Shown here one piece after another: positions 3,704 to 58,800 of a DNA stretch of 64,000 bases; the stretch's first letter is position 1; the number at the start of each line of letters is the position of its first letter. A model generated the notes under the pieces. It made no database searches. It was not told the origin of the DNA and saw nothing but the letters and a program-made list of their open reading frames with translations. The stretch lies in NCBI RefSeq assembly GCF_011045215.1, contig NZ_CP049201.1; one strand, 5' to 3'. A program made the position numbers and the translations under genes. The DNA comes from Escherichia coli (GTDB lineage: Bacteria; Pseudomonadota; Gammaproteobacteria; Enterobacterales; Enterobacteriaceae).

Positions 3704-5326
<1,623 letters not shown>

Positions 5327-5348: not shown

Positions 5349-6272
5349 TTATTCACTCATCGCATCGCGCCAGATCTTGTCAACGATACGTTGCGCCAGC
5401 ACGGCCTGTTCGCCGGCGGTTTGCGGAACTGTCTGATTTTGCACACATTCAATGAAGTGCCGCGCACAGCCGACAAATCCACGTTGTTCAAGAGTGCTCT
5501 GCCAACCAGGAATCGGTTTATGCACTACGCCCTGCCCGCGCTCCTCACGCCATTCGCGCATATCCGTAATGTCGATGAGCGCACCGTCAGTCACGGCCTG
5601 CACGGTTTCACGCTGACTTCCGGCACGGCGATGCATACAGGTGGTGATCTGCAAAGGACCAGCCGAAAAATGGTGCTCGGCAAACAGCATTTCGCCAGCG
5701 TCGTTAGTCAGTAGCGTACCGCCATCCAGAGAGGCTTTGCCACCCGACAACCACAGCGCGGTATCCACCACATGCAGATAATCATCCAGCAACGTGAAAT
5801 AAAGATCGTGTGGCCCGACGCTATTGCTACGATGTTTATCCATTCTTAGCGAAGCTGCGGTGGCGAGTTGCGTTTTTAACTCTCCGTAGAGTGGTGCGAA
5901 ACGACGGTTAAAACCGACCATCAACGTCAGTTTTTTCCGCGCCGCCAGTTCCACCAGCCGTTCAGCATCGCGCAGATTTTCTGCCAGCGGTTTATCGACA
6001 CAGACATGTACCCCCGCATTGAGTAACGTACTGACCACGTCAAAGTGGCTGGCGGTGCTGGAATGCACAAAAACCGCATCGCAACTGGCGGCAAGGCTGG
6101 ATAACGAATCGGCATAAGGAATGCGCCAGCTTTCACAAATTGGCAGGGCTTTCGCGCGCGTAGGCGACCAGGCTCCTTGTAACATCCAGTCAGACGCTGC
6201 CGCCAGCACCGGTAACCACGCTTTTTGCGCAATGCCGCCTAATCCCACAACGCCGATACGTAATTTTTTCAC
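5349..6272 (-). CDS. yceM: Predicted NAD(P)-dependent oxidoreductase YceM (MviM), Gfo/Idh/MocA family
   Basis: (V)KKLRIGVVGLGGIAQKAW Rossmann N-terminus. A GTG start gives 307 aa. The start lies next to the yceH stop. Confidence 0.85.
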   Translation of the reverse strand: MKKLRIGVVGLGGIAQKAWLPVLAAASDWMLQGAWSPTRAKALPICESWRIPYADSLSSLAASCDAVFVHSSTASHFDVVSTLLNAGVHVCVDKPLAENLRDAERLVELAARKKLTLMVGFNRRFAPLYGELKTQLATAASLRMDKHRSNSVGPHDLYFTLLDDYLHVVDTALWLSGGKASLDGGTLLTNDAGEMLFAEHHFSAGPLQITTCMHRRAGSQRETVQAVTDGALIDITDMREWREERGQGVVHKPIPGWQSTLEQRGFVGCARHFIECVQNQTVPQTAGEQAVLAQRIVDKIWRDAMSE

Positions 6273-9023: not shown

Positions 9024-9671
9024 GTGAAGCTATACATTTACGATCACTGCCCTTACTGCCTCAAAGCCCGCATGATTTTCGGCCTGAAAAATATCCCCGT
9101 CGAATTACATGTTCTGCTCAACGACGACGCAGAAACACCCACCCGGATGGTCGGTCAAAAACAGGTTCCCATTCTGCAAAAAGATGACAGCCGCTATATG
9201 CCAGAAAGCATGGATATCGTTCACTATGTCGATAAACTCGACGGCAAACCGTTACTGACCGGCAAACGTTCCCCTGCAATTGAAGAGTGGCTGCGCAAGG
9301 TCAATGGCTACGCCAACAAACTGCTGTTGCCGCGTTTTGCCAAATCGGCATTTGATGAGTTTTCTACTCCCGCCGCGCGCAAATATTTCGTCGACAAGAA
9401 AGAGGCCAGCGCGGGTAATTTTGCCGACCTGCTGGCCCACTCTGACGGTCTGATTAAGAATATCAGCGATGATTTACGTGCGCTGGACAAACTGATCGTC
9501 AAACCGAACGCCGTGAATGGCGAACTTTCGGAAGATGATATTCAGCTATTTCCACTACTGCGTAATCTGACGCTGGTAGCCGGAATCAACTGGCCAAGCC
9601 GCGTTGCTGATTACCGCGATAATATGGCGAAACAGACACAAATCAATTTGTTATCCTCAATGGCGATTTAA
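9024..9671 (+). CDS. grxB: Glutaredoxin 2
   Basis: 215 aa, MKLYIYDHCPYCLKARMIFGL with the CPYC active site. GTG start at 9024. Confidence 0.95.
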   Translation: MKLYIYDHCPYCLKARMIFGLKNIPVELHVLLNDDAETPTRMVGQKQVPILQKDDSRYMPESMDIVHYVDKLDGKPLLTGKRSPAIEEWLRKVNGYANKLLLPRFAKSAFDEFSTPAARKYFVDKKEASAGNFADLLAHSDGLIKNISDDLRALDKLIVKPNAVNGELSEDDIQLFPLLRNLTLVAGINWPSRVADYRDNMAKQTQINLLSSMAI

Positions 9672-9804
9672 TCCTGACCCGCCGCGGCAGCCTGTATTCG
9701 CGGGTTGCCGCCGTTTTCAGTTTTTTCTGCTGGCGAGTTTATCGCTGGTGACACATGCTGCGTTGTGTCAGGATATTGACGCAGATTTCATGTCGAGGAC
9801 TACC

Positions 9805-10365
9805 ATGAACAAGTTTTTATTTGCCGCTGCATTGATCGTCAGTGGCCTGCTCGTTGGCTGTAATCAACTCACCCAATACACCATCACCGAACAAGAAATT
9901 AACCAGTCGCTTGCGAAACATAATAATTTCTCAAAAGATATCGGTTTACCCGGCGTGGCTGACGCCCATATTGTTCTGACAAACTTGACCAGCCAAATTG
10001 GTCGCGAAGAGCCGAATAAGGTTACCCTAACCGGAGACGCCAATCTGGACATGAACTCCCTGTTCGGTAGTCAGAAAGCGACCATGAAACTGAAGCTGAA
10101 AGCGCTGCCCGTGTTTGATAAAGAAAAAGGTGCGATCTTCCTGAAAGAGATGGAAGTGGTCGATGCGACGGTACAACCGGAAAAAATGCAAACGGTGATG
10201 CAAACGTTGCTTCCCTATTTGAACCAGGCATTACGCAATTACTTTAACCAGCAACCTGCTTACGTCCTGCGCGAAGATGGCAGTCAGGGCGAAGCAATGG
10301 CGAAAAAACTGGCGAAAGGCATTGAAGTGAAGCCAGGCGAAATTGTCATTCCGTTTACGGATTAA
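9805..10365 (+). CDS. yceB: Lipoprotein YceB
   Basis: 186 aa from ATG 9805, MNKFLFAAALIVSGLLVGC lipobox. The longer 253-aa ORF start was rejected. Confidence 0.9.
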   Translation: MNKFLFAAALIVSGLLVGCNQLTQYTITEQEINQSLAKHNNFSKDIGLPGVADAHIVLTNLTSQIGREEPNKVTLTGDANLDMNSLFGSQKATMKLKLKALPVFDKEKGAIFLKEMEVVDATVQPEKMQTVMQTLLPYLNQALRNYFNQQPAYVLREDGSQGEAMAKKLAKGIEVKPGEIVIPFTD

Positions 10366-10370
10366 TGACG

Positions 10371-10396
10371 AGGGCGCATTCGCGCCCTTTATTTTT
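10371..10396 (+). terminator. Rho-independent terminator after yceB
   Basis: AGGGCGC-attc-GCGCCCT stem followed by TTATTTTT. Confidence 0.7.
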
Positions 10397-10401
10397 CGTG
10401 C

Positions 10402-10421
10402 AAAGGAAAACGTTTCCGCTT
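10402..10421. promoter_or_regulatory. PurR operator upstream of pyrC
   Basis: Palindromic GGAAAACGTTTCC core fits the PurR box (ACGCAAACGTTTTC-like). pyrC is a known PurR target. Confidence 0.6.
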
Positions 10422-10431
10422 ATCCTTTGTG

Positions 10432-10458
10432 TCCGGCAAAAACATCCCTTCAGCCGGA
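10432..10458 (+). promoter_or_regulatory. pyrC leader hairpin that can sequester the Shine-Dalgarno
   Basis: TCCGGC ... GCCGGA inverted repeat whose 3' arm overlaps the GGAG just before ATG 10471. This is the known pyrimidine-dependent start-site/translation control. Confidence 0.6.
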
Positions 10459-10470
10459 GCATAGAGATTA

Positions 10471-11517
10471 ATGACTGCACCATCCCAGGTATTAAAGATC
10501 CGCCGCCCAGACGACTGGCACCTTCACCTCCGCGATGGCGACATGTTAAAAACTGTCGTGCCGTATACCAGCGAAATTTATGGACGGGCTATTGTAATGC
10601 CCAATCTGGCTCCGCCCGTGACCACTGTTGAGGCTGCCGTGGCGTATCGCCAGCGTATTCTTGATGCCGTACCTGCCGGGCACGATTTCACCCCATTGAT
10701 GACCTGTTATTTAACAGATTCGCTGGATCCTAATGAGCTGGAGCGCGGATTTAATGAAGGCGTGTTCACCGCTGCAAAACTTTACCCGGCAAACGCAACC
10801 ACTAACTCCAGCCACGGCGTGACGTCAATTGACGCAATCATGCCGGTACTTGAGCGCATGGAAAAAATCGGTATGCCGCTACTGGTGCATGGTGAAGTGA
10901 CACATGCAGATATCGACATTTTTGATCGTGAAGCGCGCTTTATAGAAAGCGTGATGGAACCTCTGCGCCAGCGCCTGACTGCGCTGAAAGTCGTTTTTGA
11001 GCACATCACCACCAAAGATGCTGCCGACTATGTCCGTGACGGAAATGAACGGCTGGCTGCCACCATCACTCCGCAGCATCTGATGTTTAACCGCAACCAT
11101 ATGCTGGTTGGTGGCGTGCGTCCGCACCTGTATTGTTTACCCATCCTCAAACGCAATATTCACCAACAGGCATTGCGTGAACTGGTCGCCAGCGGTTTTA
11201 ATCGAGTATTCCTCGGTACGGATTCTGCGCCACATGCACGTCATCGCAAAGAGAGCAGTTGCGGCTGCGCGGGCTGCTTCAACGCCCCAACCGCGCTGGG
11301 CAGTTACGCTACCGTCTTTGAAGAGATGAATGCTCTGCAGCACTTTGAAGCATTCTGTTCTGTAAACGGCCCGCAGTTCTATGGCTTGCCGGTCAACGAC
11401 ACATTCATCGAACTGGTACGTGAAGAGCAACAGGTTGCTGAAAGCATCGCACTGACTGATGACACCCTGGTGCCATTCCTCGCCGGGGAAACGGTACGCT
11501 GGTCCGTTAAACAATAA
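10471..11517 (+). CDS. pyrC: Dihydroorotase
   Basis: 348 aa, [26 protein letters not shown] with the HxH metal motif. Confidence 0.95.
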
Positions 11518-46999: not shown

Positions 47000-47872
47000 T
47001 CAGAAGAAAATCCAGTTCCATACCGCACGGGCAACAGAGACCACCGTGTCACGAACAGCGCGCAGGGCCGTACGGACAACAGAGGCAACACAGACGCTCT
47101 CCGCTGTGTCAAATATCCGGTCCACCGCACCGGTAAACTGTTCACGGGCCTGAGAGCGGACAGATTCCGTGCGCAGCTCGTCCTGCAGTCGGGTCATCAG
47201 GGGACTGGCGGCATGGTCGGGAAGCGCTGTCATGAGCGCACTGACCAGCGTATCCAGTTCCCAGCCGGTGCGGGCCGATACGGCCACAACCGGATGTGCG
47301 GGCCGGAACAGACGGAATACCGCCTCCGTTTTTTCGCGAATGTTCCGTGCCTGTGCGGGAGAGGGCTGAATGCCGGCCATATCCCATTCATGGCAGGGCT
47401 CCGTTTTGTCGGCCTGCGTCACCACAAACAGCACCTGCTGATGTCCCCGGTGCAGGATGTGTCGCCAGAAATACTCATCCACAGACAAGGCACGGTCATC
47501 GGCTTTAATCAGCCACAGTACCAGGTCCAGTTCAGGCAGAATGTCACGGTACAGGGCTTCATACTCTGCATCCCTGTCCCGACTCTCGCCCACCCCGGGC
47601 AGGTCAGTAATAACCATGCTGTGACCGTGGCCACTCAGACGGAAGCGCCGCACTTCCCGGGTGCCGGCGTGAACATCACTGACCGGTGTGACCTCTCCCT
47701 GAAACAGGGCATTACAGAGTGAGGATTTACCGGCCCCGCTTTTCCCCATAATGCCAATCACGGGTTCGTGACTGGTGAGTTTGCGCAGATGTTCCAGGAT
47801 GTGACGGGAAAGTGAGTAAGGCAGGGAGGAGAGCGGTTTTTCAATTGCCTCAATGGCATCAGACGGATTCAT
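47000..47872 (-). CDS. YeeP/YkfA/YfjP-family GTPase
   Basis: 290 aa from the internal Met MNPSDAIEAIEK. Walker A GIMGKSGAGKSS, DLPGVGE and TQADK motifs. Confidence 0.85.
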   Translation of the reverse strand: MNPSDAIEAIEKPLSSLPYSLSRHILEHLRKLTSHEPVIGIMGKSGAGKSSLCNALFQGEVTPVSDVHAGTREVRRFRLSGHGHSMVITDLPGVGESRDRDAEYEALYRDILPELDLVLWLIKADDRALSVDEYFWRHILHRGHQQVLFVVTQADKTEPCHEWDMAGIQPSPAQARNIREKTEAVFRLFRPAHPVVAVSARTGWELDTLVSALMTALPDHAASPLMTRLQDELRTESVRSQAREQFTGAVDRIFDTAESVCVASVVRTALRAVRDTVVSVARAVWNWIFF

Positions 47873-48087
47873 ACATGTATTCCCGGTGAAAAAAGACAAA
47901 ACCCCGCGCACCGGAAAAGTGGCGGGGGACTCACGGAGATAATATCTGCCTAAAATTATTTGGAATGCAGGTATATGCAGCTAATTTGTATCGGCTCATT
48001 AGTACAGAACTAAACCTCATCTGACAGTCCGCTCTGTGCCAAGAGCGGACTTTGCAAAATGGGGGTTATTTCAATCAAAACGTAACG

Positions 48088-49032
48088 TCACAACCAGCCG
48101 ACGCTCTCTCGCCATTTATAATTAGTAACTTTATCATTTTCGCTTATTTTTTTAGATATAGAGCGCGGCTCTCTTCCTAGATACTCAGATATTTCTATCG
48201 GGGACAAATCAAAATCGACAAGCATGACTCTAAGTTTTTCCATTTCCTTTAAAGTCCAAGGCTTGCCATAATTTTCATAAAGAGATACCTTATGCTCCCT
48301 GATAGTTCGCTTTCTCTGAGTTTCACTTTCCCTCTGAAAAATCTCGCTTTTAAATTGTGAACGGAACTCTTTACAGAAGTTGTTATCAGTTTTTTTGTTA
48401 TATAGATTGCTAAAAATAAGCTGGGATGCCGGGTCTAAATCAGGTGTGTTAATAATGAAAACTTTGACCTTTTCCATATAGGGATATTCAATTTTACCCA
48501 ATATGCTTAATTGCTTTATATTAAAAAAACCTCTCAAATCAAAAGATTTAATGAGCTTTGATTGGATTACACTTTCAATCCTGCTTGCATTTGAATAACA
48601 GTACTTTGCCATTGGAAGGGCCCATACTACCAGTTGAGGAATATATTTTTCTAATGCAATGCTCTGCCAATCAGTATCAAAGGTTTGGCTTTTTGCTAGC
48701 ATGTTTTTCGGCAAATCAGAATACATTGTGGTAGATGCCCATATCTTATAATCATTCGCCAAGGCTTGATAGTATTTTGTGTGGTTATGAATTTTATAAG
48801 CTGACATGAAGCGATAAACGTCTTCGTCGTGACCAGCGTCGTAAATTGTTCGATTTCCTCTAAGATAACCGTCGTAATGTTCGGTTATCCTTCTACCTAC
48901 ATTACAACTTACCCCAACGTAAACCACACGACTGAAAAGTCCTTTATGGACAATAAGATAAACTCCGCTACAGCCAGATTTCCTGGCCTCTGATAGAGAA
49001 CCTAAAAATCTCCATTCCATAATTAAATCCAT
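48088..49032 (-). CDS. Orphan GIY-YIG-like nuclease domain protein with a C-terminal Myb/SANT-like HTH
   Basis: 314 aa. N-terminal GVYLIVHKGLFSRVVYVGVSCNVGRRITEHY fits GIY-(10)-YxG...R..EH. Later RIESVIQ/FFN are candidate Glu/Asn. C-terminal KPWTLKEMEKLRVMLVDFDLSPIEISEYLGREPRSISKKI. The gene is markedly AT-rich. Confidence 0.7.
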   Translation of the reverse strand: MDLIMEWRFLGSLSEARKSGCSGVYLIVHKGLFSRVVYVGVSCNVGRRITEHYDGYLRGNRTIYDAGHDEDVYRFMSAYKIHNHTKYYQALANDYKIWASTTMYSDLPKNMLAKSQTFDTDWQSIALEKYIPQLVVWALPMAKYCYSNASRIESVIQSKLIKSFDLRGFFNIKQLSILGKIEYPYMEKVKVFIINTPDLDPASQLIFSNLYNKKTDNNFCKEFRSQFKSEIFQRESETQRKRTIREHKVSLYENYGKPWTLKEMEKLRVMLVDFDLSPIEISEYLGREPRSISKKISENDKVTNYKWRESVGWL

Positions 49033-49494
49033 AATTATTGCTACTGTTTTTGTTTATCATTATTTTCGTGAAACTTCAACAATTTTATCCAAAAGCTAAG
49101 GGCAAAGACTTATATAATTATACTTGTCATCGTTAGCGATTATATAGAGTAGTGGCGCTGACCTGCTCCCTGGTGATTCACACAGAATGCTGTTAGTAAT
49201 GTCCGTTCCTCGCTCAAAGCAGACCATTCGCTCAGTTAACGCATCAGTGTCGTGCTAAAAGTAGACGTGGTTAACAACAATGTGAGTTAATCAACGGAGA
49301 GCAGGTCAACTCTAACCTGTATCAAAAAAACAAATGTGTCACAAAGATGCCGCATGCCTTAATTTGAGTATAATTGAGACGGAAGTAGACGGTTTATGGC
49401 TAAATATTGTTGATATATAGCTATTTGAAGAGTTGTAGCGCAAGTGTATAGCCCAAACTAATAACGCTACGCCCCTTACCTTTGACGCGTCTTA

Positions 49495-49803
49495 TCAAAG
49501 AGCGGCGATGATGCACAGCCCGCACGAGGCAATATTCGCACAAGAATCAGGTTCAGAAATAACCTGATCTGGCATGGTGGGGAGAGTATCACTGAGCAGG
49601 CTTTCGGTAAAATGCGGCGGGATGAGGTCGGCGTGGGTTGCAGCAGTACAATGTCGCCCGCAGAGGGTAAGCCACAGCGCGGGATCCTCGGTTTCTATCA
49701 GGGATTCGACGAAGTGGGCGCAGTTGTCGACCAAGGCGGTGAAATCCATAGTGACATTATAAGGAAACGAACAATAGATCGAGTAAATCGCAGTCAGGGA
49801 CAA
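49495..49803 (-). CDS. Hypothetical protein (doubtful ORF)
   Basis: 102-aa ORF with a TTG start, or 84 aa from MDFTALVDNCAHF. No recognisable SD or family. Confidence 0.25.
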   Translation of the reverse strand: MSLTAIYSIYCSFPYNVTMDFTALVDNCAHFVESLIETEDPALWLTLCGRHCTAATHADLIPPHFTESLLSDTLPTMPDQVISEPDSCANIASCGLCIIAAL

Positions 49804-49981
49804 GGATTGTAGTCATAGAGAAGTCTCCTGTAACGGTTTTCAGGAAGCTAATCCCGACGCCTGATTTTGCAGGCGCGGAAGGAGAAGATACTGCGGCCAT
49901 TAATCCGCCACAAGGCATTTACGTGCATAAATCGCGCAGTCAAATCCGACTCCCACTGTAGTTCTTGAACCTGATACCACA

Positions 49982-50024: not shown

Positions 50025-50270
50025 ATGAATATGAATGAAGACGAGATTTATCGCCATATCCGGCAGGCACTTTCCAGTGCGCCTCGTAACCAGTACACCG
50101 TCGAGCTGCACCTGCAAATGATTAAATATGCCGACAAACTGGAACACATTACGGCAAAAGCCTTTTGCGAAGGCACTGGTCTGAACCAGAGCCTCGGTAC
50201 CGAATTCAGCAAAATGCGTAACTTAACCCATCGGTTAAAGGCCGCCGGTCTGAATACCGATCTGCTGTAA
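50025..50270 (+). CDS. Small protein preceding hsdM, possible HTH regulator
   Basis: 81 aa, MNMNEDEIYRHIRQALSSAPRNQYTVELHLQMIKYADKLEHITAKAFCEGTGLNQSLGTEFSKMRNL. The HTH call is a guess from the A-x3-G-like turn. Confidence 0.55.
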   Translation: MNMNEDEIYRHIRQALSSAPRNQYTVELHLQMIKYADKLEHITAKAFCEGTGLNQSLGTEFSKMRNLTHRLKAAGLNTDLL

Positions 50271-50309: not shown

Positions 50310-52748
50310 ATGGCTATCAAAAAAACCGAACTCTATTCTTCCCTGTGGGCAAGCTGCGACGAACTGCGTGGCGGGATGGACGCCAGCCAGTACAAAGACT
50401 ATGTACTGACCCTGCTGTTTATGAAGTACGTTTCCGATAAGTATAAAGGCGATCCTTACGGGATGATCGTGATACCCAAAGGAGCCAGCTTTGACGATAT
50501 GGTTGCGCTGAAAAATGACAAAGAGATCGGCGACAAAATCAACAAAATCATCCACAAGCTGGCGGAAGAGAACGGCCTGAAGGGCGTCATCGACGAAGCC
50601 GACTTTAACGACGAAGATAAGCTCGGCAAAGGCAAGGAAATGATTGACCGCCTGAGCAAGCTTGTCGGTATCTTTGAAGGGTTAAATCTCTCCAGCAACC
50701 GGGCCGAAGGCGACGATCTGCTGGGCGATGCCTATGAATATCTGATGCGTCACTTCGCAACCGAATCCGGTAAGAGTAAAGGGCAGTTTTACACTCCAGC
50801 GGAGGTGTCACGTATTCTGGCGAAGGTGATTGGTATTACTCCCGATACTCCGCAAGATGCAACGGTTTATGACCCAACCTGTGGCTCTGGTTCGCTGCTG
50901 TTGAAAGTGAATGATGAAGCCCGGCGCGGACTGTCGATTTTCGGCCAGGAGATGGATAACGCTACCAGTGCGCTGGCGCGGATGAACATGATTCTGCATA
51001 ACAATGCCACCGCGAAAATCTGGCAGGGCAATACGCTGAGCGATCCGCAGTGGAAAGAGGCGAACGGCAAACTGAAAGCCTTCGATTTTGCCGTGGCGAA
51101 CCCGCCTTTTTCCAATAAAAACTGGACCAACGGGCTGACGCCGAAAAAAGATCCGTTTGAACGCTTCGGCTGGGGTATTCCGCCGGAAAAAAACGGCGAT
51201 TATGCTTTTTTGTTGCATATCATTAAAAGCCTGAAAAGTACCGGCAAAGGCGCGGTGATCCTGCCCCACGGCGTACTGTTTCGCGGTAACGCCGAAGCGA
51301 ATATCCGTGAAAATCTAATCAAGCAGGGCTATATCAAAGGCGTTATTGGTTTGCCAGCCAACCTGTTTTACGGCACCGGCATCCCGGCGTGCATCATTGT
51401 GATTGATAAAGAGCACGCCCACAGCCGCAAAGGCATTTTTATGATCGACGCCAGCCGGGGCTTTATCAAAGATGGCAACAAGAACCGCCTGCGTAGCCGA
51501 GATATTCACCGCATTGTGGACGTGTTCAACCATCAGCGAACGGTACCTGGCTACAGCCGGATGGTGCCCTCCAGCGAGATCGCCGGAAATGATTACAACC
51601 TGAATATTCCTCGCTATATCGAGAGCGGCGAGCCGGAAGATTTACACGATCTGACCGCGCACTTACAGGGCGGTATTCCGGCACGCGATGTGGATGCTTT
51701 GCAAGATTACTGGCGGGTATTCCCTGCCCTGCGCAACGTGCTGTTTGCTGACGACCGTCCCGGTTACTGTCGGGCGCAGGTGAACGCGCAACAGGTGAAA
51801 CCGACCATTCTGGCGCATCAGGAGTTTAAGGATTTTGCCACCCGCAGCCTGCTACCGTTTAAAGCGTGGGTGAAAGAGGCAAGTCTGGAAGAGATTCGCA
51901 AAGGTGATAAACCCAAAGCGCTAATCCACGATATCAGCGAAATGCTATTGGCGCAGTACGCCAACAGTGAGTTGCTGAACAAATACAGCGTGTACCAGAT
52001 CCTGATGGATTACTGGACTGATGTCATGCAAGACGATGTGTATGCGATTATGCAGGATGGCTGGCAAGCCGCCGCGCAAATCCGCGAGCTTCAGCCGGTG
52101 AAAGGCAAAGATGGCAAAAACATCTGGAAAGAAACGCACGATTTCGAGTTTACCAAACGGCGCTACAAGGCCGATGTGCTGCCCCGTTCGCTGGTGGAAA
52201 TTCGCTGTTTCCCGGAACTGCTGGATGCGCTGAACCGCGCGCAGGAGCGCAGTGAAGAAGCCAGTCGTCAGCTAGTGGAATTCATCGAGGAGCAGGCAGG
52301 TGAAGAGGATCTGCTGGCCGAGGCGAAGAACGATAAAGATAAGGTGACGCAAAAGCTGGTGAATGCCCGTCTAGCACAGTTAAAGAAAACCACTGCCGGC
52401 CCAGATGAGCTGGCAGTGCTGAACCGCTGCCTGGCGCTAATTAAGGCCGAAGCCAGTGCGAAAAAAGCGCTGAAAGCCGCACAAGAAGCGCTGGATCGGG
52501 CGGTGTTTAAACATTATCCCACGCTGGATGAAGCAGCGATTAAAACGCTGGTAGTGCAGGATAAGTGGCTGGCAACGTTGCAGGCAGGGATCAAGGCGGA
52601 GATTGAGCGTATTACCCAGCAACTGGCGTCGCGCGTAAAGGAGCTGGAAGAGCGTTATGCTGAACCGTTGCTAGCGCTTGAAGCCTCCGTTGAGGCGTTG
52701 AGCGAGAAAGTGGCCGGGCATTTGCGGGCGATGGGGCTGGAGTGGTGA
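50310..52748 (+). CDS. hsdM: Type I R-M DNA methyltransferase subunit HsdM with a long C-terminal coiled-coil extension
   Basis: 812 aa. AdoMet motif DPTCGSGSLLL and catalytic NPPF (AVANPPFSNKNW). The last ~300 aa are E/K/A/L-rich. Confidence 0.92.
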   Translation: MAIKKTELYSSLWASCDELRGGMDASQYKDYVLTLLFMKYVSDKYKGDPYGMIVIPKGASFDDMVALKNDKEIGDKINKIIHKLAEENGLKGVIDEADFNDEDKLGKGKEMIDRLSKLVGIFEGLNLSSNRAEGDDLLGDAYEYLMRHFATESGKSKGQFYTPAEVSRILAKVIGITPDTPQDATVYDPTCGSGSLLLKVNDEARRGLSIFGQEMDNATSALARMNMILHNNATAKIWQGNTLSDPQWKEANGKLKAFDFAVANPPFSNKNWTNGLTPKKDPFERFGWGIPPEKNGDYAFLLHIIKSLKSTGKGAVILPHGVLFRGNAEANIRENLIKQGYIKGVIGLPANLFYGTGIPACIIVIDKEHAHSRKGIFMIDASRGFIKDGNKNRLRSRDIHRIVDVFNHQRTVPGYSRMVPSSEIAGNDYNLNIPRYIESGEPEDLHDLTAHLQGGIPARDVDALQDYWRVFPALRNVLFADDRPGYCRAQVNAQQVKPTILAHQEFKDFATRSLLPFKAWVKEASLEEIRKGDKPKALIHDISEMLLAQYANSELLNKYSVYQILMDYWTDVMQDDVYAIMQDGWQAAAQIRELQPVKGKDGKNIWKETHDFEFTKRRYKADVLPRSLVEIRCFPELLDALNRAQERSEEASRQLVEFIEEQAGEEDLLAEAKNDKDKVTQKLVNARLAQLKKTTAGPDELAVLNRCLALIKAEASAKKALKAAQEALDRAVFKHYPTLDEAAIKTLVVQDKWLATLQAGIKAEIERITQQLASRVKELEERYAEPLLALEASVEALSEKVAGHLRAMGLEW

Positions 52749-54088
52749 TGGTGGATTTAATGGTGAATGAGCAACGGTCGAGTACGGCGGGGAAAGATGT
52801 GCCTGCGGGGTATAAACTGACTGAGGTGGGCGTGATTCCTGAGGATTGGGATTGCGTACCATTTGGTAATCTGTTTAAAACAAACACAAAGAAAAAAAAA
52901 GTCAGCGATTATGAGCTAGTTTCATTTATTGGGATGCAGGATGTTAGTGAAGATGCACAATTAAAAAATAATACTCAACTTCCTTTTAAAGAAGTTAAAA
53001 GTGGTTTTACTTACTTTGAAAAAGGGGATGTTTTATTAGCTAAAATAACCCCTTGTTTTGAAAATGGAAAAGGATGTCATACCGCTGATTTACCTACTAA
53101 TGTAGGTTTTGGGAGTACGGAATTTCATGTATTAAGGGAAAATGAAGACTCCGATTCTCGCTTCATCTATTTTTGGACAACTGATAAAAAATTCAGAGCA
53201 TCACTGGAATCTGAAATGGTGGGAAGTGCGGGACACCGTCGTGTGCCGCTAGTTGCTATAGAAAAATATTTGATTCCATGTCCCCCAAATTTGCAAGAGC
53301 AAAGTGCTATTGCTGATTCATTATCTGATATTAATAATTTTATTCTAGCTCTAGAAAAGCTTATCGTTAAAAAACAAGCCATTAAAACCGCTACTATGCA
53401 GCAACTACTGACGGGTAAAACCCGTTTGCCACAGTTTGCGTTACGCAAAGATGGCTCTGCTAAGGGATATAAAAAGAGCGAGTTGGGGGCGATTCCTGAA
53501 GATTGGGTAGTCACAAGCATTGGACAATTTACTGACTGCTGTGCTGGTGGAACTCCGAGTACTAAAATTTCAGCATATTGGGGAGGAACTCATCCTTGGA
53601 TGAGTTCCGGCGAATTACACTTAAAACAAGTGTATGCTGTAGCCGATTATATAACCGACGAAGGGCTTGTTAACTCCAGTACAAAGTATGTGCCTAAAAA
53701 TTCTGTATTAGTCGGATTGGCAGGACAAGGAAAGACTCGAGGGACTGTAGCAATTAATCGCATTGAATTATGTACTAATCAGTCTATTGCTGCGATTTTC
53801 CCCAGCAAACATCATTCCACAGAATTCCTGTTCTATAACCTCGACAGTCGTTATGAGGAACTGAGAAGTTTATCTACTGGTGATGGGGGGCGTGGTGGGT
53901 TGAATCTTACTATTATCAGGAAATTACATCTTGCATTTCCGCCAAAAGAAGAACAAGCCGCCATCGCCGCCATCCTCTCCGATATGGACAAGGAAATCCA
54001 GATCCTGCAACAGCGTCTGGACAAAACCCGCCAGCTTAAGCAAGGGATGATGCAGGAACTGTTAACCGGGAAAATCCGCTTAATATAG
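52748..54088 (+). CDS. hsdS: Type I R-M specificity subunit HsdS
   Basis: Two TRDs, each opened by ..IPEDW..., and two conserved helices ending QQLLTGKTRLP / QELLTGKIRL. ATG 52748 overlaps the hsdM TGA. An in-frame GTG at 52742 is an alternative start. Confidence 0.92.
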   Translation: MVDLMVNEQRSSTAGKDVPAGYKLTEVGVIPEDWDCVPFGNLFKTNTKKKKVSDYELVSFIGMQDVSEDAQLKNNTQLPFKEVKSGFTYFEKGDVLLAKITPCFENGKGCHTADLPTNVGFGSTEFHVLRENEDSDSRFIYFWTTDKKFRASLESEMVGSAGHRRVPLVAIEKYLIPCPPNLQEQSAIADSLSDINNFILALEKLIVKKQAIKTATMQQLLTGKTRLPQFALRKDGSAKGYKKSELGAIPEDWVVTSIGQFTDCCAGGTPSTKISAYWGGTHPWMSSGELHLKQVYAVADYITDEGLVNSSTKYVPKNSVLVGLAGQGKTRGTVAINRIELCTNQSIAAIFPSKHHSTEFLFYNLDSRYEELRSLSTGDGGRGGLNLTIIRKLHLAFPPKEEQAAIAAILSDMDKEIQILQQRLDKTRQLKQGMMQELLTGKIRLI

Positions 54089-54100
54089 AAGGGAAAGCAC

Positions 54101-54757
54101 ATGGCTTATGATTACAGCGCCAGCCTCAACCCGCAAAAAGCTCTGATCTGGCGTATCGTCCATCGGGACAATATCCCGTGGATTCTGGATAACGGGCTGC
54201 ACTGCGGCAACAGTCTGGTGCAGGCGGAAAACTGGATCAATATCGGCAACCCGGAGCTGATCGGCAAGCGTGCCGGGCATCCGGTACCTGTCGGAACGGG
54301 CGGGACACTGCATGACTATGTGCCGTTTTATTTTACCCCCTTCTCGCCAATGCTGATGAACATCCACAGCGGGCGCGGCGGCATTAAGCAACGCCCCAAT
54401 GAGGAGATCGTTATTCTGGTCAGCAACTTGCGGAACGTGGCAGCACACGACGTGCCCTTCGTGTTTACCGACAGCCATGCTTACTATAACTGGACCAACT
54501 ACTACACCAGTCTGAATAGTCTGGACCAGATCGACTGGCCCATTTTGCAGGCACGGGACTTTCGCCGCGATCCAGACGATCCGGCTAAATTTGAACGCTA
54601 TCAGGCAGAGGCGCTAATCTGGCAACACTGCCCGATCTCTCTGCTGGATGGGATAATTTGTTACAGCGAAGAGGTCAGGTTACAATTAGAGCAATGGCTG
54701 TTTCAGCGTAATCTAACAATGTCCGTTCACACACGGGCTGGATGGTACTTCTCATGA
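54101..54757 (+). CDS. darT: DarT-like (DUF4433) DNA ADP-ribosyltransferase toxin
   Basis: 218 aa. Motifs [29 protein letters not shown] and YQAEALIW, ending AGWYFS. These closely parallel DarT as I remember it. Confidence 0.85.
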
Positions 54758-55821
54758 TCACATATACACAAGGCAATTTACTGGACGCACCGGTGGAAGC
54801 TCTGGTGAATACGGTTAATACCGTCGGTGTCATGGGGAAAGGCATCGCGTTGATGTTTAAAGAGCGCTTCCCCGAAAATATGAAAGTCTATGCCCTCGCT
54901 TGCAAACAAAAGCAGGTGATCACCGGCAAAATGTTCATTACCGAAACCGGGGAACTGATGGGACCGCGCTGGATTGTTAATTTTCCGACCAAACAGCACT
55001 GGCGCGCTGATTCCCGCATGGAGTGGATTGAAGATGGCTTGCAGGACTTACGCCGCTTTTTGATTGAAGAGAACGTGCAGTCCATCGCCATTCCACCACT
55101 GGGCGCAGGCAACGGTGGTTTGAACTGGCCGGACGTTCGGGCGCAGATTGAATCTGCCCTTGGCGACCTTCAGGACGTTGATATCCTGATTTACCAACCG
55201 ACTGAAAAATACCAGAACGTTGCCAAAAGCACTGGCGTAAAAAAGCTCACTCCCGCCAGAGCCGCCATCGCTGAACTGGTGCGTCGCTACTGGGTATTGG
55301 GGATGGAGTGCAGCCTACTGGAAATCCAGAAACTGGCCTGGCTGTTACAACGCGCCATTGAGCAGCATCAACAGGACGATATCCTCAAACTGCGGTTTGA
55401 AGCTCACTATTATGGCCCCTATGCGCCCAATCTGAACCATCTGCTTAATGCGCTGGACGGCACCTATCTAAAAGCCGAGAAACGCATCCCGGACAGCCAA
55501 CCGCTGGATGTGATCTGGTTTAACGATCAAAAAAAAGAACACGTTAATGCGTATCTGAACAACGAAGCCAGAGAGTGGCTACCTGCGCTGGAGCAGGTCA
55601 GCCAGTTAATTGACGGCTTTGAATCGCCGTTTGGTCTGGAGTTGCTGGCAACCGTAGACTGGTTGCTGAGCCGTGGCGAATGTCAACCAACGCTGGATTC
55701 CGTTAAGGAAGGACTGCACCAGTGGCCTGCGGGCGAACGCTGGGCCAGCCGTAAGTTGAGGCTGTTTGATAATAATAATCTGCAATTTGCCATTAACCGC
55801 GTAATGGAGTTCCATTGCTGA
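54754..55821 (+). CDS. darG: DarG-like macrodomain antitoxin (ADP-ribosyl-DNA glycohydrolase)
   Basis: 355 aa from [40 protein letters not shown] (macrodomain) plus a C-terminal domain. Its ATG overlaps the darT stop as ATGA. Confidence 0.85.
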
Positions 55822-55839
55822 GGGTTTAAGGAGCGCCTT

Positions 55840-58800
55840 TTGAGTACCGTGGGCCAGCGCGAACGCGCCACACAGCAGCGTCTGATTCAGTTTTTTGTTG
55901 AAGATTTAGGATACCGCCATCTGAGTCACCGCACCGGGTACACCGGGAACAGCAACATCGACACTAATATACTGAGCGCGTGGCTAAAACGGCGCGGCGT
56001 TAATGATACGTTGATCACCCGGGCGTTGCGGCAACTGGATTCCGCCGCCGCCCTGGGCGAAGGCAAAAAACTCTATTACGCCAATAAAGAGGTCTATCGC
56101 CTGCTGCGTTACGGCGTGAAAGACAAAGAAGGTGCAGGCGAGCAGAACCAAACCGTGTGGCTGATTGACTGGGCCAACCCACAAGCCAATGATTTCGCCA
56201 TCGCCGATGAGGTGACGGTCAAAGGCGAGTACTGCAAGCGCCCGGATCTGGTGCTGTACGTTAACGGCATTGCGCTGGGCGTGATTGAACTTAAGCGTTC
56301 GTCAGTGCACGTCAGCGAAGGTATCCGGCAGAATCTCGATAATCAAAAGAAAACCTTTATCCGCGATTTCTTCACCACTATGCAGTTAGTGATGGCAGGC
56401 AACGATACGCAGGGCCTGCGCTACGGCACCATCGAAACCCCGGAAAAATACTATCTGGAGTGGAAAGAAGATAATCCAGGCGACTATACACATAAACTCG
56501 ACTTTCATTTAAGTCGTCTGTGTAGCAAATCCAGGCTGTTGGATATCGTCCATAATTACATTGTCTTTGATGTCGGGGTGAAAAAACTCTGCCGCCATAA
56601 TCAGTTCTTCGGCGTCGAGGCGGCTAAGCAACATATTGCCCGTCGTGAAGGCGGTATTATCTGGCACACACAGGGATCGGGTAAAAGCCTGACGATGGTC
56701 TGGCTGGCGAAGTGGATCCGTGAAAATGTGCCAAACTCCCGCGTGTTGATTGTGACTGACCGCACCGAACTGGATGAACAGATCGAAAGCGTGTTTATGG
56801 GCGTGAATGAAGATATTTATCGCACCTCCAGCGGCAACGATCTTATCGCAACGCTCAATCATCCTAACCCGTGGCTTATTTGCTCGCTGGTGCATAAATT
56901 TGGTTGTCGCAGCGAAGCTGAAGACAATGCGGCTACCGACGCCTTTATCACCGAATTACAGCAGTCCCTGACGAAAACATTCCGCGCCAAAGGCGATCTG
57001 TTTGTTTTTGTGGACGAGTGCCACCGCACACAATCCGGCAAGCTGCATAACGCCATGACTGCCATTCTGCCGGACGCCCTGTTTATCGGTTTTACCGGCA
57101 CACCGCTGATGAAGAAAGATAAGAAGAAGTCGGTTGAGGTGTTCGGCCCTTATATCCATACCTATAAATTTGATGAAGCGGTGGCCGACGGTGTGGTGCT
57201 GGATCTGCGCTACGAGGCGCGCGATATTGACCAGTATCTGACATCAGAGAAAAAGGTCGATGACTGGTTTGAAGCCAAGACTCGCGGTTTGTCGAATTTA
57301 GCCAGGACCCAGCTTAAGCAAAAGTGGGGATCAATGCAGAAGCTGCTCTCCAGCAAGTCGCGGCTGGAGCAGATCGTTAACGACATTTTGCTGGATATGG
57401 ATACCCGTCCACGCCTGATGGACGGGCGCGGCAACGCCATGCTGGTATGCAGCAGTATCTATCAAGCCTGCAAGGTTTACGAGATGTTCAGCCAGACCGA
57501 GCTGGCAGGAAAAGTAGCGATTGTGACCAGCTATCGCCCCGATGCCGCCAGCATCAAAGGCGAAGAAACGGGCGAAGGGTTAACGGAGAAACTCTCTAAA
57601 CACGCCACCTATCGTAAAATGTTGGCTGACTATTTTGAACAAAGTGAAGAGAAGGCCGCCGCACGCATTACCGAGTTCGAGCGGGAAGTGAAACAACGTT
57701 TTATTGAAGAGCCGGGGCAAATGCGCCTGCTTATCGTGGTGGACAAGCTGTTGACTGGCTTTGACGCGCCGTCCGCCACCTATCTCTACATTGATAAAAC
57801 CATGACCGACCATACGCTGTTTCAGGCGATTTGTCGGGTGAACCGGCTGGACGGTGAGGATAAAGAGTATGGCTATATTATCGATTATAAAGATCTGTTC
57901 CGTTCGCTGGATAAAGCGATTACCGATTACACCACGGGCGCGTTTGATGATTACGATCGGGACGATGTGGCCGGGTTGCTGAAAGACAGGCTGGAGCAGG
58001 CGCAACTGGATCTCGACAGCGCGCTGGAGATGGTTCGCAGCTTATGTGAGCCCGTCAAAACCCCGCGCAGCCTGCAGGACTATCAGCACTATTTTTGCGG
58101 TAAATCAGGAGAGAATCAGACTTCGTTAAACGAAAAAGAGGCGCTGCGCCTGACATTTTACCAGTGCGTCGCCCGTCTGCTACGCGCTTATGCCAGCATC
58201 GCCAATGAAATGCCGGAAGCAGGCTACACTGCCGAAGAGGTAGAGAGCATTCGCGCCGAAGTCGCTGAATTCGAAAAACTGCGCTATGAGATTAAGCTGA
58301 CCAGCGGCGATCTTCTGGATATGAAGCGCTTTGAACCCGCTATGCGTCATTTACTGGATATGTATGTTCGCGCCGATGGTAGCGAAGTGCTGATGGATTT
58401 TGAAGAGTTAAGTCTGATTGAACTGATTGTCGAGAAAGGCTTGGCGGCGACCGTCGCCCTGCCGGATGATATCCGTAATAATCAGGATGCGATGGCGGAA
58501 ACCATCGAAAACAACGTGCGCAAAACCATCGTGGATGAAAACCCGGTTAACCCAAAATACTATGGACGCATGTCGCAGCTGCTGGATGAACTGATTACCC
58601 TTCGCCGACAAAATGCGCTCAATTATCAGCAGTATCTGGAACGTATCCGCGATTTGTGTAAACAGGTCATCCGCCCGGAGCAAACCGCCGGAGCGTGCTA
58701 CCCTGCCACCATGGATACACAAGCAAAGCGCGCCTTCTATGACAACTTCGGCCACGACGAGGTACTGGCGACCCGCATAGATACGACAATTCGCTATACC

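Follow-up and report, generated by a model that had tools for sequence, protein, structure and literature searches.

Defence systems that consist of one gene with a GIY-YIG domain are represented in the literature by PD-T4-3 (now CMoRE), PD-lambda-1 and Uzume. CMoRE is a single-gene type IV restriction enzyme of Escherichia coli marked by the motif GIYxY-YIG, by an acidic loop with inhibitory function and by a C-terminal sensor of novel fold for 5-hydroxymethylcytosine and its glucosylated form (5hmC/5ghmC) (PMC12923530), and Uzume (UzuA) and PD-lambda-1 are reported as one-gene systems with a GIY-YIG-like domain (bioRxiv 10.1101/2024.10.26.620412). The gene described here is an open reading frame (ORF) at 48088..49032, minus strand, of a 64,000-nucleotide (nt) stretch of the E. 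coli contig NZ_CP049201.1 (the window, to whose full length positions refer unless a locus is named). It encodes a protein of 314 amino acids (aa) in which a predicted GIY-YIG nuclease module is joined to a C-terminal helix-turn-helix (HTH) of the Myb/SANT type. With a probability of about 0.5 we consider the protein to be a stand-alone, HTH-tethered DNA endonuclease serving defence or exclusion for the element that carries it.

The protein begins with an extended nuclease module (48412..49032, residues 1-207; this and all following parts on the minus strand), which occurs alone in distant relatives as proteins of ~205-230 aa. Within the module, the GIY...YIG...R...H segment (48847..48969, residues 22-62, with Y25, Y38, G40, R48 and H52) is the part matched by Pfam PF01541, TIGR01453 and PADLOC PDC-S14/UzuA. 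It is followed by a conserved insert that is specific to the family and separates helix 1 from strand 3 (48634..48858, residues 59-133), in which G59, D71, Y73, W98 and W122 are at least 90% conserved, and by the third core strand and a helix (48487..48633, residues 134-182) with the putative catalytic Glu153 (IESVIQ), N171 and an L178-G179-K180 motif. A variable helical linker (48280..48411, residues 208-251, long helix 228-251) leads to the three-helix HTH, which resembles Myb/SANT and GcrA DNA-binding domains (48124..48267, residues 256-303; W259, E265, L267, R268 and R287 invariant), and a conserved tail NDK...WR...WL closes the protein.

In the structure model two strands (23-30 and 34-42), a helix (45-58), the ~75-residue insert, a strand (134-140) and a helix carrying E153 (146-164) form a three-stranded sheet flanked by helices, so that the GIY-YIG fold is confidently predicted. 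Profile scores of the window protein itself are below threshold: E 0.017 for Pfam PF01541 (15.8 bits versus a gathering score of 22.6), E 0.017 for TIGR01453 (group I intron endonuclease) and E 0.0075 for PADLOC PDC-S14. All three matches are confined to residues ~12-63; the Pfam model covers just the first half of the domain, and stays sub-threshold, because the insert splits it. Pfam GIY-YIG is matched at E up to 0.1 by 30 of 30 aligned family members (best 7e-6), and among 20 isolated C-terminal domains seven match Myb_DNA-bind_6 (best 7e-5) and five HTH_38. With Foldseek, neither the PDB (best E 0.63) nor the BFVD viral models (best E 1.5e-3, TM about 0.2) yielded a significant full-length match. 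The first-pass annotation, made from the letters of the window, had read a GIY-YIG-like nuclease and a Myb/SANT-like HTH from two peptides, and the predicted fold, the family-wide Pfam matches and the conserved Tyr/Tyr/Arg/Glu set support this remote-homology interpretation. Both peptides are present in the ORF, GVYLIVHKG...GRRITEHY as residues 23-53, that is near the N-terminus and not at it as had been stated, and KPWTLKEMEKLRVML...SISKKI as residues 257-296.

Conservation was followed in a close alignment of 30 sequences, 38-85% identical to the query, and in a wider family, extended by distant relatives that a profile picked out of 1.84 billion representatives (139 clusters with E of 1e-3 or lower) and scored over 39 proteins down to ~20% identity. 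In the close family Y25, Y38, G40, R48, H52, E153 and N171 do not vary, and Y25, Y38, G40, R48 and E153 are still at least 90% conserved in the wider one. The hallmark set of GIY-YIG enzymes, Tyr of GIY, Tyr of YIG, Arg and Glu, thus corresponds to Y25, Y38, R48 and E153, the last being the putative catalytic Glu from its conservation and position rather than from a residue-level structural superposition. W7, G59, D71, Y73, W98, W122, L178 and G179 are specific to the family and at least 90% conserved in its wider circle. The HTH is an accessory part, given that many distant relatives consist of the ~205-aa nuclease module and nothing else. Two relatives are longer: P0074 (451 aa) has an extra N-terminal domain of ~128 residues before the complete GIY-YIG-HTH architecture, and in P0095 (515 aa) the nuclease module is instead followed by a long C-terminal extension of unrelated sequence.

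Nei-Gojobori estimates of the ratio of nonsynonymous to synonymous substitution (dN/dS), for pairs with dS of 0.18-1.8, are 0.07-0.18 overall, 0.07-0.20 for the nuclease, 0.11-0.30 for the linker and mostly 0.05-0.11 for the HTH, so that purifying selection acts on all three parts. That the HTH is the most constrained of them would also suit an inactive, domesticated nuclease which regulates transcription through its HTH, and endonuclease-derived domesticated regulators are described from phage satellites (PMC8096241). The Tyr/Tyr/Arg/Glu set is kept across the whole family, including the relatives without HTH, and we regard such a regulator as very improbable.

In its layout the protein resembles CMoRE, as a single protein from E. 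coli accessory DNA with an N-terminal GIY-YIG domain, an extra core loop and a C-terminal DNA-reading domain. It differs from CMoRE in its GVYLIVH sequence, which has Ile instead of a third Tyr two positions past Y25, and in ending with a Myb/SANT-type HTH instead of a 5hmC/5ghmC sensor. With Uzume, PD-lambda-1 and PDC-S14 it shares the one-gene organisation with a GIY-YIG-like domain; in UzuA, however, the motif lies in the C-terminal half (profile positions 154-198) and not N-terminally as here. Unlike R.Eco29kI-type type II enzymes and T4 endonuclease II, which show no sequence-level similarity to the window protein, the gene has no co-travelling cognate methyltransferase, either at the 26 loci compared or in an integron cassette. 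From Myb/SANT and GcrA DNA-binding domains it is distinguished by a single repeat fused to a nuclease and by the lack of a Pfam GcrA match, and the Myb/SANT-type fold is too small and too common for a DNA specificity to be deduced from it. The protein is a new architectural variant among the GIY-YIG nucleases of mobile elements, some of which are defensive, and stands outside any characterised defence family tested. To the earlier question of whether this is a known anti-phage GIY-YIG gene or a new architecture, the answer is that it is not PD-T4-3, PD-lambda-1 or a full-length UzuA, and that a defence role of the new variant is plausible but unproven.

Most likely the HTH would serve as an anchor to double-stranded DNA, near which the nuclease module would nick or cut in a tethered layout like that of I-TevI, with no need for a partner protein. 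As accessory cargo of genomic islands, prophages, integrative and conjugative elements (ICEs), plasmids and an integron, the enzyme would most likely protect the host or the element by cutting incoming phage or other foreign DNA. Host DNA might be spared through a modification or structure read by the insert or the HTH, through a target that is rare in hosts, or through tight control of expression. By analogy with the insertions of R.Eco29kI and the CMoRE loop, the conserved insert is most likely the site of substrate discrimination or autoinhibition, and the Myb-type HTH argues for the reading of a sequence or groove feature and not for base flipping.

A related possibility, to which we give rather low odds, is an effector of the abortive-infection type, silent or autoinhibited until infection is sensed and then degrading its own cell's DNA together with that of the phage and so killing the cell. 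The absence of a self-protecting partner and the recurrent pseudogenisation of the gene, which suggests a cost, are in line with this. So is its AT-rich composition, because genes of this type are usually held at low expression in E. coli through H-NS silencing. CMoRE shows that autoinhibitory core loops are possible in GIY-YIG defence enzymes (PMC12923530), and the family has a large conserved insert. On the other hand, no sensor domain is recognisable, the HTH suggests direct targeting of DNA, and no sequence feature separates abortive infection from direct cleavage of foreign DNA.

The family comprises 72 clusters at 90% identity, nearly all of 309-314 aa, and many of its members already bear the NCBI name "GIY-YIG nuclease family protein"; the label "orphan" given to the gene earlier does not hold if it is taken to mean a gene without relatives. 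Hosts are Enterobacterales (Salmonella, Yersinia and Serratia among the carriers), Vibrio, Photobacterium, Aeromonas, Plesiomonas, Pseudoalteromonas, Thalassotalea and Undibacterium (Betaproteobacteria), to which a genome scan adds Pseudomonas oryzihabitans and Rugamonas. The ORF is present in 288 of 5,426 complete E. coli genomes (about 5%; at 99% identity or more in 286) and on four of 72,556 plasmids, and no copy was found by tblastn in 50,697 phage genomes. IMG/VR holds seven matches, 78-100% identical, of which four have a lambdoid-prophage arrangement, judged by a small recombinase at the same offset. Disrupted copies recur, by an IS903B insertion, by an internal stop, as a split gene in a Pantoea metagenome-assembled genome and as truncated forms in Klebsiella.

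An all-against-all comparison of the ORFs around 26 loci revealed no conserved neighbour, the GIY-YIG gene being the sole shared cluster. The copies occupy genomic islands, prophage accessory slots, ICEs, plasmids and an integron, with flanks unrelated between loci. In Vibrio parahaemolyticus the gene is a one-gene integron cassette within cassettes on the same strand (L031, gene 9619-10548 between ~123-nt attC-type repeats at 9477-9611 and 10554-10688, with 16 repeat copies in 17 kb); as the contig carries no integrase gene, we infer its assignment to a chromosomal integron. Larger upstream genes were considered as partners (513 aa in Brenneria, 603 aa in Salmonella, 668 aa in Undibacterium) and rejected, being mutually unrelated; the one from Salmonella carries domains of the phage tail collar and shufflon types.

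Of about 21 distinct contexts, about 11 have known defence genes no more than 10 kb away. Besides the window with its type I restriction-modification (R-M) system and DarTG, these include a marine gammaproteobacterium (L021), in which a distant GIY-YIG homologue stands directly beside a type I R-M hsdM/hsdS pair homologous to that of the window; Salmonella, with ThsA/ThsB/TIR in an integrase-relaxase island; Aeromonas, with AbiH 88 nt downstream; Thalassotalea (L040 3242-9961), with BrxR and a four-gene operon that includes MksE and, on the upstream side, stops 40 nt short of the GIY-YIG gene; an ICE of Brenneria, with TerB, a BrxC/BrxD-type ATPase and a helicase; Undibacterium, with RES, HNH and AAA-protease genes; and a Serratia plasmid with PifA. 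In E. coli, the gene adjoins a NACHT protein, PD-T7-1 (E 7e-157) in a lambdoid prophage, and a restriction endonuclease in a second CP4-type island. In the Thalassotalea locus the BrxR-type regulator is divergent from the operon, whose products are of 269, 991, 468 and 180 aa with a Pfam match (MksE) in the last only; this operon may be an uncharacterised SMC/Mks-like defence system.

DNA similarity between unrelated contexts extends beyond the ORF over a mobile one-gene module (48027..49241, minus strand), 79-99% identical to copies in Salmonella, Enterobacter, Citrobacter, Pantoea, Serratia, on plasmids and at other E. coli sites. Its ends are nearly constant, at about 48004/48027 and 49215/49241. 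Upstream lies a 66-nt junction unit (49201..49266, minus strand) made of a degenerate palindrome (49243-49266), an 18-nt linker (49225-49242) and a palindrome GTCTGCT-N10-ACGGAC (49201-49224), and downstream the palindrome GTCCGCTCTTGGCACAGAGCGGAC with a 10-bp stem (48027..48050, minus strand), the first half of the next junction unit. Junctions aligned from five genera form one unit of ~66 nt, palindrome, linker AnGTTAACTGAGCTGAAG and palindrome, with divergence immediately beyond. In an E. coli genome with the same island, other cargo, coding for proteins of 459 aa and 172 aa, takes the place of exactly 48049-49195, the breakpoint falling inside the downstream palindrome 48027..48050, and the lambdoid-prophage slot likewise holds alternative cargo. 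The GIY-YIG module, like the alternative cargo, stands between 24-nt palindromes GTCCGCT-N10-AGCGGAC; in the window this kind of site occurs twice, once at each end of the module, against 0.6 predicted from shuffled sequences.

The occupants of the alternative slots are candidate accessory or defence genes. Those of the window slot (L061 4231-5610, plus strand, 459 aa; 5747-6265, minus strand, 172 aa) have no Pfam or PADLOC match, and those of the prophage slot (L060 4138-6267) show weak similarity to GNAT (E 9e-4) and to a HEPN/RES N-terminal domain (E 2e-4). A chimeric query of the two slot flanks found no contiguous match in the 5,426 E. coli genomes; with no empty version of the window slot among them, nothing points directly to precise excision here.

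A discrete one-gene module with the same ends in many contexts and 89-99% identity across genera, found also as a lone insertion between housekeeping genes of Kosakonia, is what a selfish mobile endonuclease might produce, one that cuts a target site and so promotes the copying or retention of its own ~1.2-kb module in a homing-like manner, without benefit to the host. The order of N-terminal catalytic domain, linker and C-terminal HTH is that of the GIY-YIG homing endonucleases (I-TevI, I-BmoI, Seg proteins), and the TIGR01453 match, weak as it is, is to an intron endonuclease. The family differs from these enzymes in lying outside phages, introns and inteins, in having no common insertion target, in giving no NUMOD, IENR or zinc-finger Pfam match at E up to 10, and in the ~75-aa insert in the catalytic domain. 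The unrelated flanks argue against a common homing site, and unrelated cargo bounded by the same junction motifs means that the junctions explain mobility better than the nuclease does. The absence of copies from the phage genomes and of significant structural matches in BFVD also speaks against a selfish element, as does the strong purifying selection seen in every part of the protein together with the fixation of many copies in their lineages; we consider such an element unlikely. The first-pass label, a candidate single-gene defence or selfish endonuclease, has gained support as far as a solitary nuclease-HTH gene is concerned, with the defence half plausible and the selfish half doubtful.

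The junction unit occurs in 635 of 5,426 E. coli genomes at one to three copies each, which rules against a dispersed REP-type (repetitive extragenic palindromic) repeat. In Citrobacter, Pantoea, Enterobacter and Salmonella such units separate arrays of segments of 0.6-3 kb with one to three genes each. Apart from the window, loci with the junction units are L015 6510-14141, L007 1228-10984, L019 9809-15161, L056 7767-8983 and L061 4022-6443. A tyrosine recombinase of ~202 aa, the size of FimB/FimE and annotated as "site-specific integrase" (for example WP_023147793), lies within a few kb of the junction units and the GIY-YIG module in many loci (L056 5184-5792, minus strand; L059 7170-7772; L002 9170-9776; L007 4415-5019; L042 736-1341; L063 2857-3459; L064 7126-7728). 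Often degraded or a pseudogene, it is carried by 848 of 5,426 E. coli genomes; the window has no copy. The junction unit was also seen in two phages of 33.8 kb, in the interval from the tail-sheath to the tail-fibre-assembly genes: in Escherichia phage 899 (PV533660, L062) it lies at 5001-5069 between two inserted hypothetical genes, and Yersinia phage GMG73 has it as well. The site in phage 899 is not the hotspot of Rousset et al. 2022, whose locus is gpA-gpQ (old/tin).

The palindromic junctions around the module, with the ~202-aa recombinase often near and neighbouring cassettes of mixed function, could also point to an accessory enzyme that processes DNA of its own mobile element, by recombination, repair or resolution at the junction palindromes, and not to defence. 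GIY-YIG enzymes include repair and structure-specific nucleases such as UvrC and Slx1. Most junction-bounded segments are nevertheless without the GIY-YIG gene (the unit is in 635 genomes, the gene in 288), and the copies of Vibrio, Aeromonas, Thalassotalea and Undibacterium have neither such junctions nor the recombinase nearby; we hold this role to be quite unlikely. A larger picture, rather speculative as a whole, is that the GIY-YIG gene is one cassette of an exchange platform of Enterobacteriaceae, in which segments of 0.6-3 kb with 66-nt double-palindrome junctions are shuffled by the ~202-aa recombinase between CP4-type islands, lambdoid or P2-sized prophages and plasmids, and the nuclease a new stand-alone defence family. 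No published description of such a platform was found, and two recent papers on P2/P4 defence hotspots make no mention of such junction repeats. The scan of 33 junction-bounded cargo proteins gave one PADLOC match (PD-T7-1), the remainder being GNATs, FMN reductases, LysE/LysR, ArsB/ArsC, MFS transporters, a colicin domain and AsnC regulators. A description as arrays of defence cassettes was accordingly rejected, and membership of these functionally mixed arrays was not counted as evidence for defence.

Returning to the stand-alone endonuclease serving defence or exclusion, several observations weigh against it. With neither methyltransferase nor immunity partner, a solitary active nuclease has no evident means of self-protection. 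Conservation of H52 and N171 is lost among the 39 proteins of the wider family, in which L178-G179 is kept instead of N171. PADLOC, which had been suggested as a check, gave only motif-level matches to PDC-S14/UzuA: no PD-T4-3 match in any of 30 members, no match of the family to the PD-lambda-1 models, and UzuA/PDC-S14 matches (E 1e-5 to 1e-2, best 2.7e-5) which are not full-length, being limited to ~45 of the 277-320 profile positions. Validated defence models thus recognise nothing beyond a superfamily motif of ~45 residues, and full-text literature searches with the family accessions and the architecture found nothing. No sigma-70-like promoter was found on the coding strand of the gene. 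About half of the contexts are without a known defence gene, among them the Kosakonia copy with housekeeping genes on both sides, two plasmid contexts and a prophage remnant, and the other cargo in the Citrobacter, Pantoea and Enterobacter arrays is of GNATs, reductases, LysE/LysR, arsenic resistance and transporters. The defence neighbourhood is suggestive as a count of association, about 11 in about 21, but chance often places the accessory genes of mobile elements near defence genes. The "laterally acquired defence gene" proposed earlier is well described as mobile and solitary, with a defence role that stays plausible but unproven. In the prophage remnant another, different GIY-YIG gene adjoins, annotated as "LEM-3-like GIY-YIG domain-containing protein" and placed after a junction palindrome (L055 6554-7327, L058 9362-10135).

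The setting of the gene in the window was read from the RefSeq annotation of a 98.9%-identical E. coli locus (NZ_CP042903), which has a coding sequence at the equivalent position. A CP4-type island at a tRNA-Ser gene carries CbtA/CbeA, YeeS/T, Ag43 and a YeeP-type GTPase, followed by the GIY-YIG gene, a small hypothetical ORF, an HTH-like gene, the type I R-M operon and an M48 peptidase, so that the position between a CP4-type module and an R-M/DarTG operon, as first described, is borne out. The operon, in the order hsdM, hsdS, darT, darG and hsdR before the M48 metallopeptidase gene (about 50310-58000; L001 22411-31746), is complete and separate from the GIY-YIG gene. The gene had been described as having ORF-free DNA on both sides, which is only roughly so: 176 nt separate it from the YeeP-type GTPase gene downstream (47000-47872), and ~460 nt from the small hypothetical ORF upstream (49495-49749, minus strand), beyond which lies the HTH-like gene (50031-50270, plus strand). 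Just upstream of the small ORF, at 49815-49889 on the minus strand, Rfam gives sub-threshold matches to the isrK Hfq-binding RNA (42.3 bits versus a gathering score of 50, E 3e-7) and to c4-a1b1 antisense targets (40.9 bits versus 46.7, E 2e-8), and this region may be an antisense-RNA control region of the island.

The G+C content of the ORF is 0.364 compared to 0.498 for the whole window, in agreement with its first description as AT-rich; in steps of 400 nt it is 0.33-0.40 over 48000-49400, compared with 0.55-0.61 for the Ag43/YeeP genes and 0.47-0.56 across the R-M operon. The stop codon is at 48090-48088. In the family alignment most homologues start with MEWRFLG at what is the fifth codon here, which makes ATG 49020 (residue M5) the probable true start. 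Rfam has no match in 48027-49266, leader and gene together, and the leader was rejected as a known RNA. An upstream 43-aa ORF (49096-49227) was rejected as partner or leader peptide, because it is interrupted by a 49-nt insertion in three orthologous modules and would not fit into the Vibrio cassette.

If the protein is defensive, it would be a compact (~0.95 kb) one-protein nuclease system whose architecture lies outside the defence-finder models tested, and its insert and HTH would raise the question of how a lone nuclease tells foreign DNA from self; the precedent of CMoRE indicates that enzymes of this kind can be turned into tools that read DNA modifications. If it is not, the family adds one more uncharacterised accessory nuclease. 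The junctions and the small recombinase, if they really mediate exchange, would help to explain how single genes, for defence or for other accessory functions, are transferred between unrelated mobile elements.
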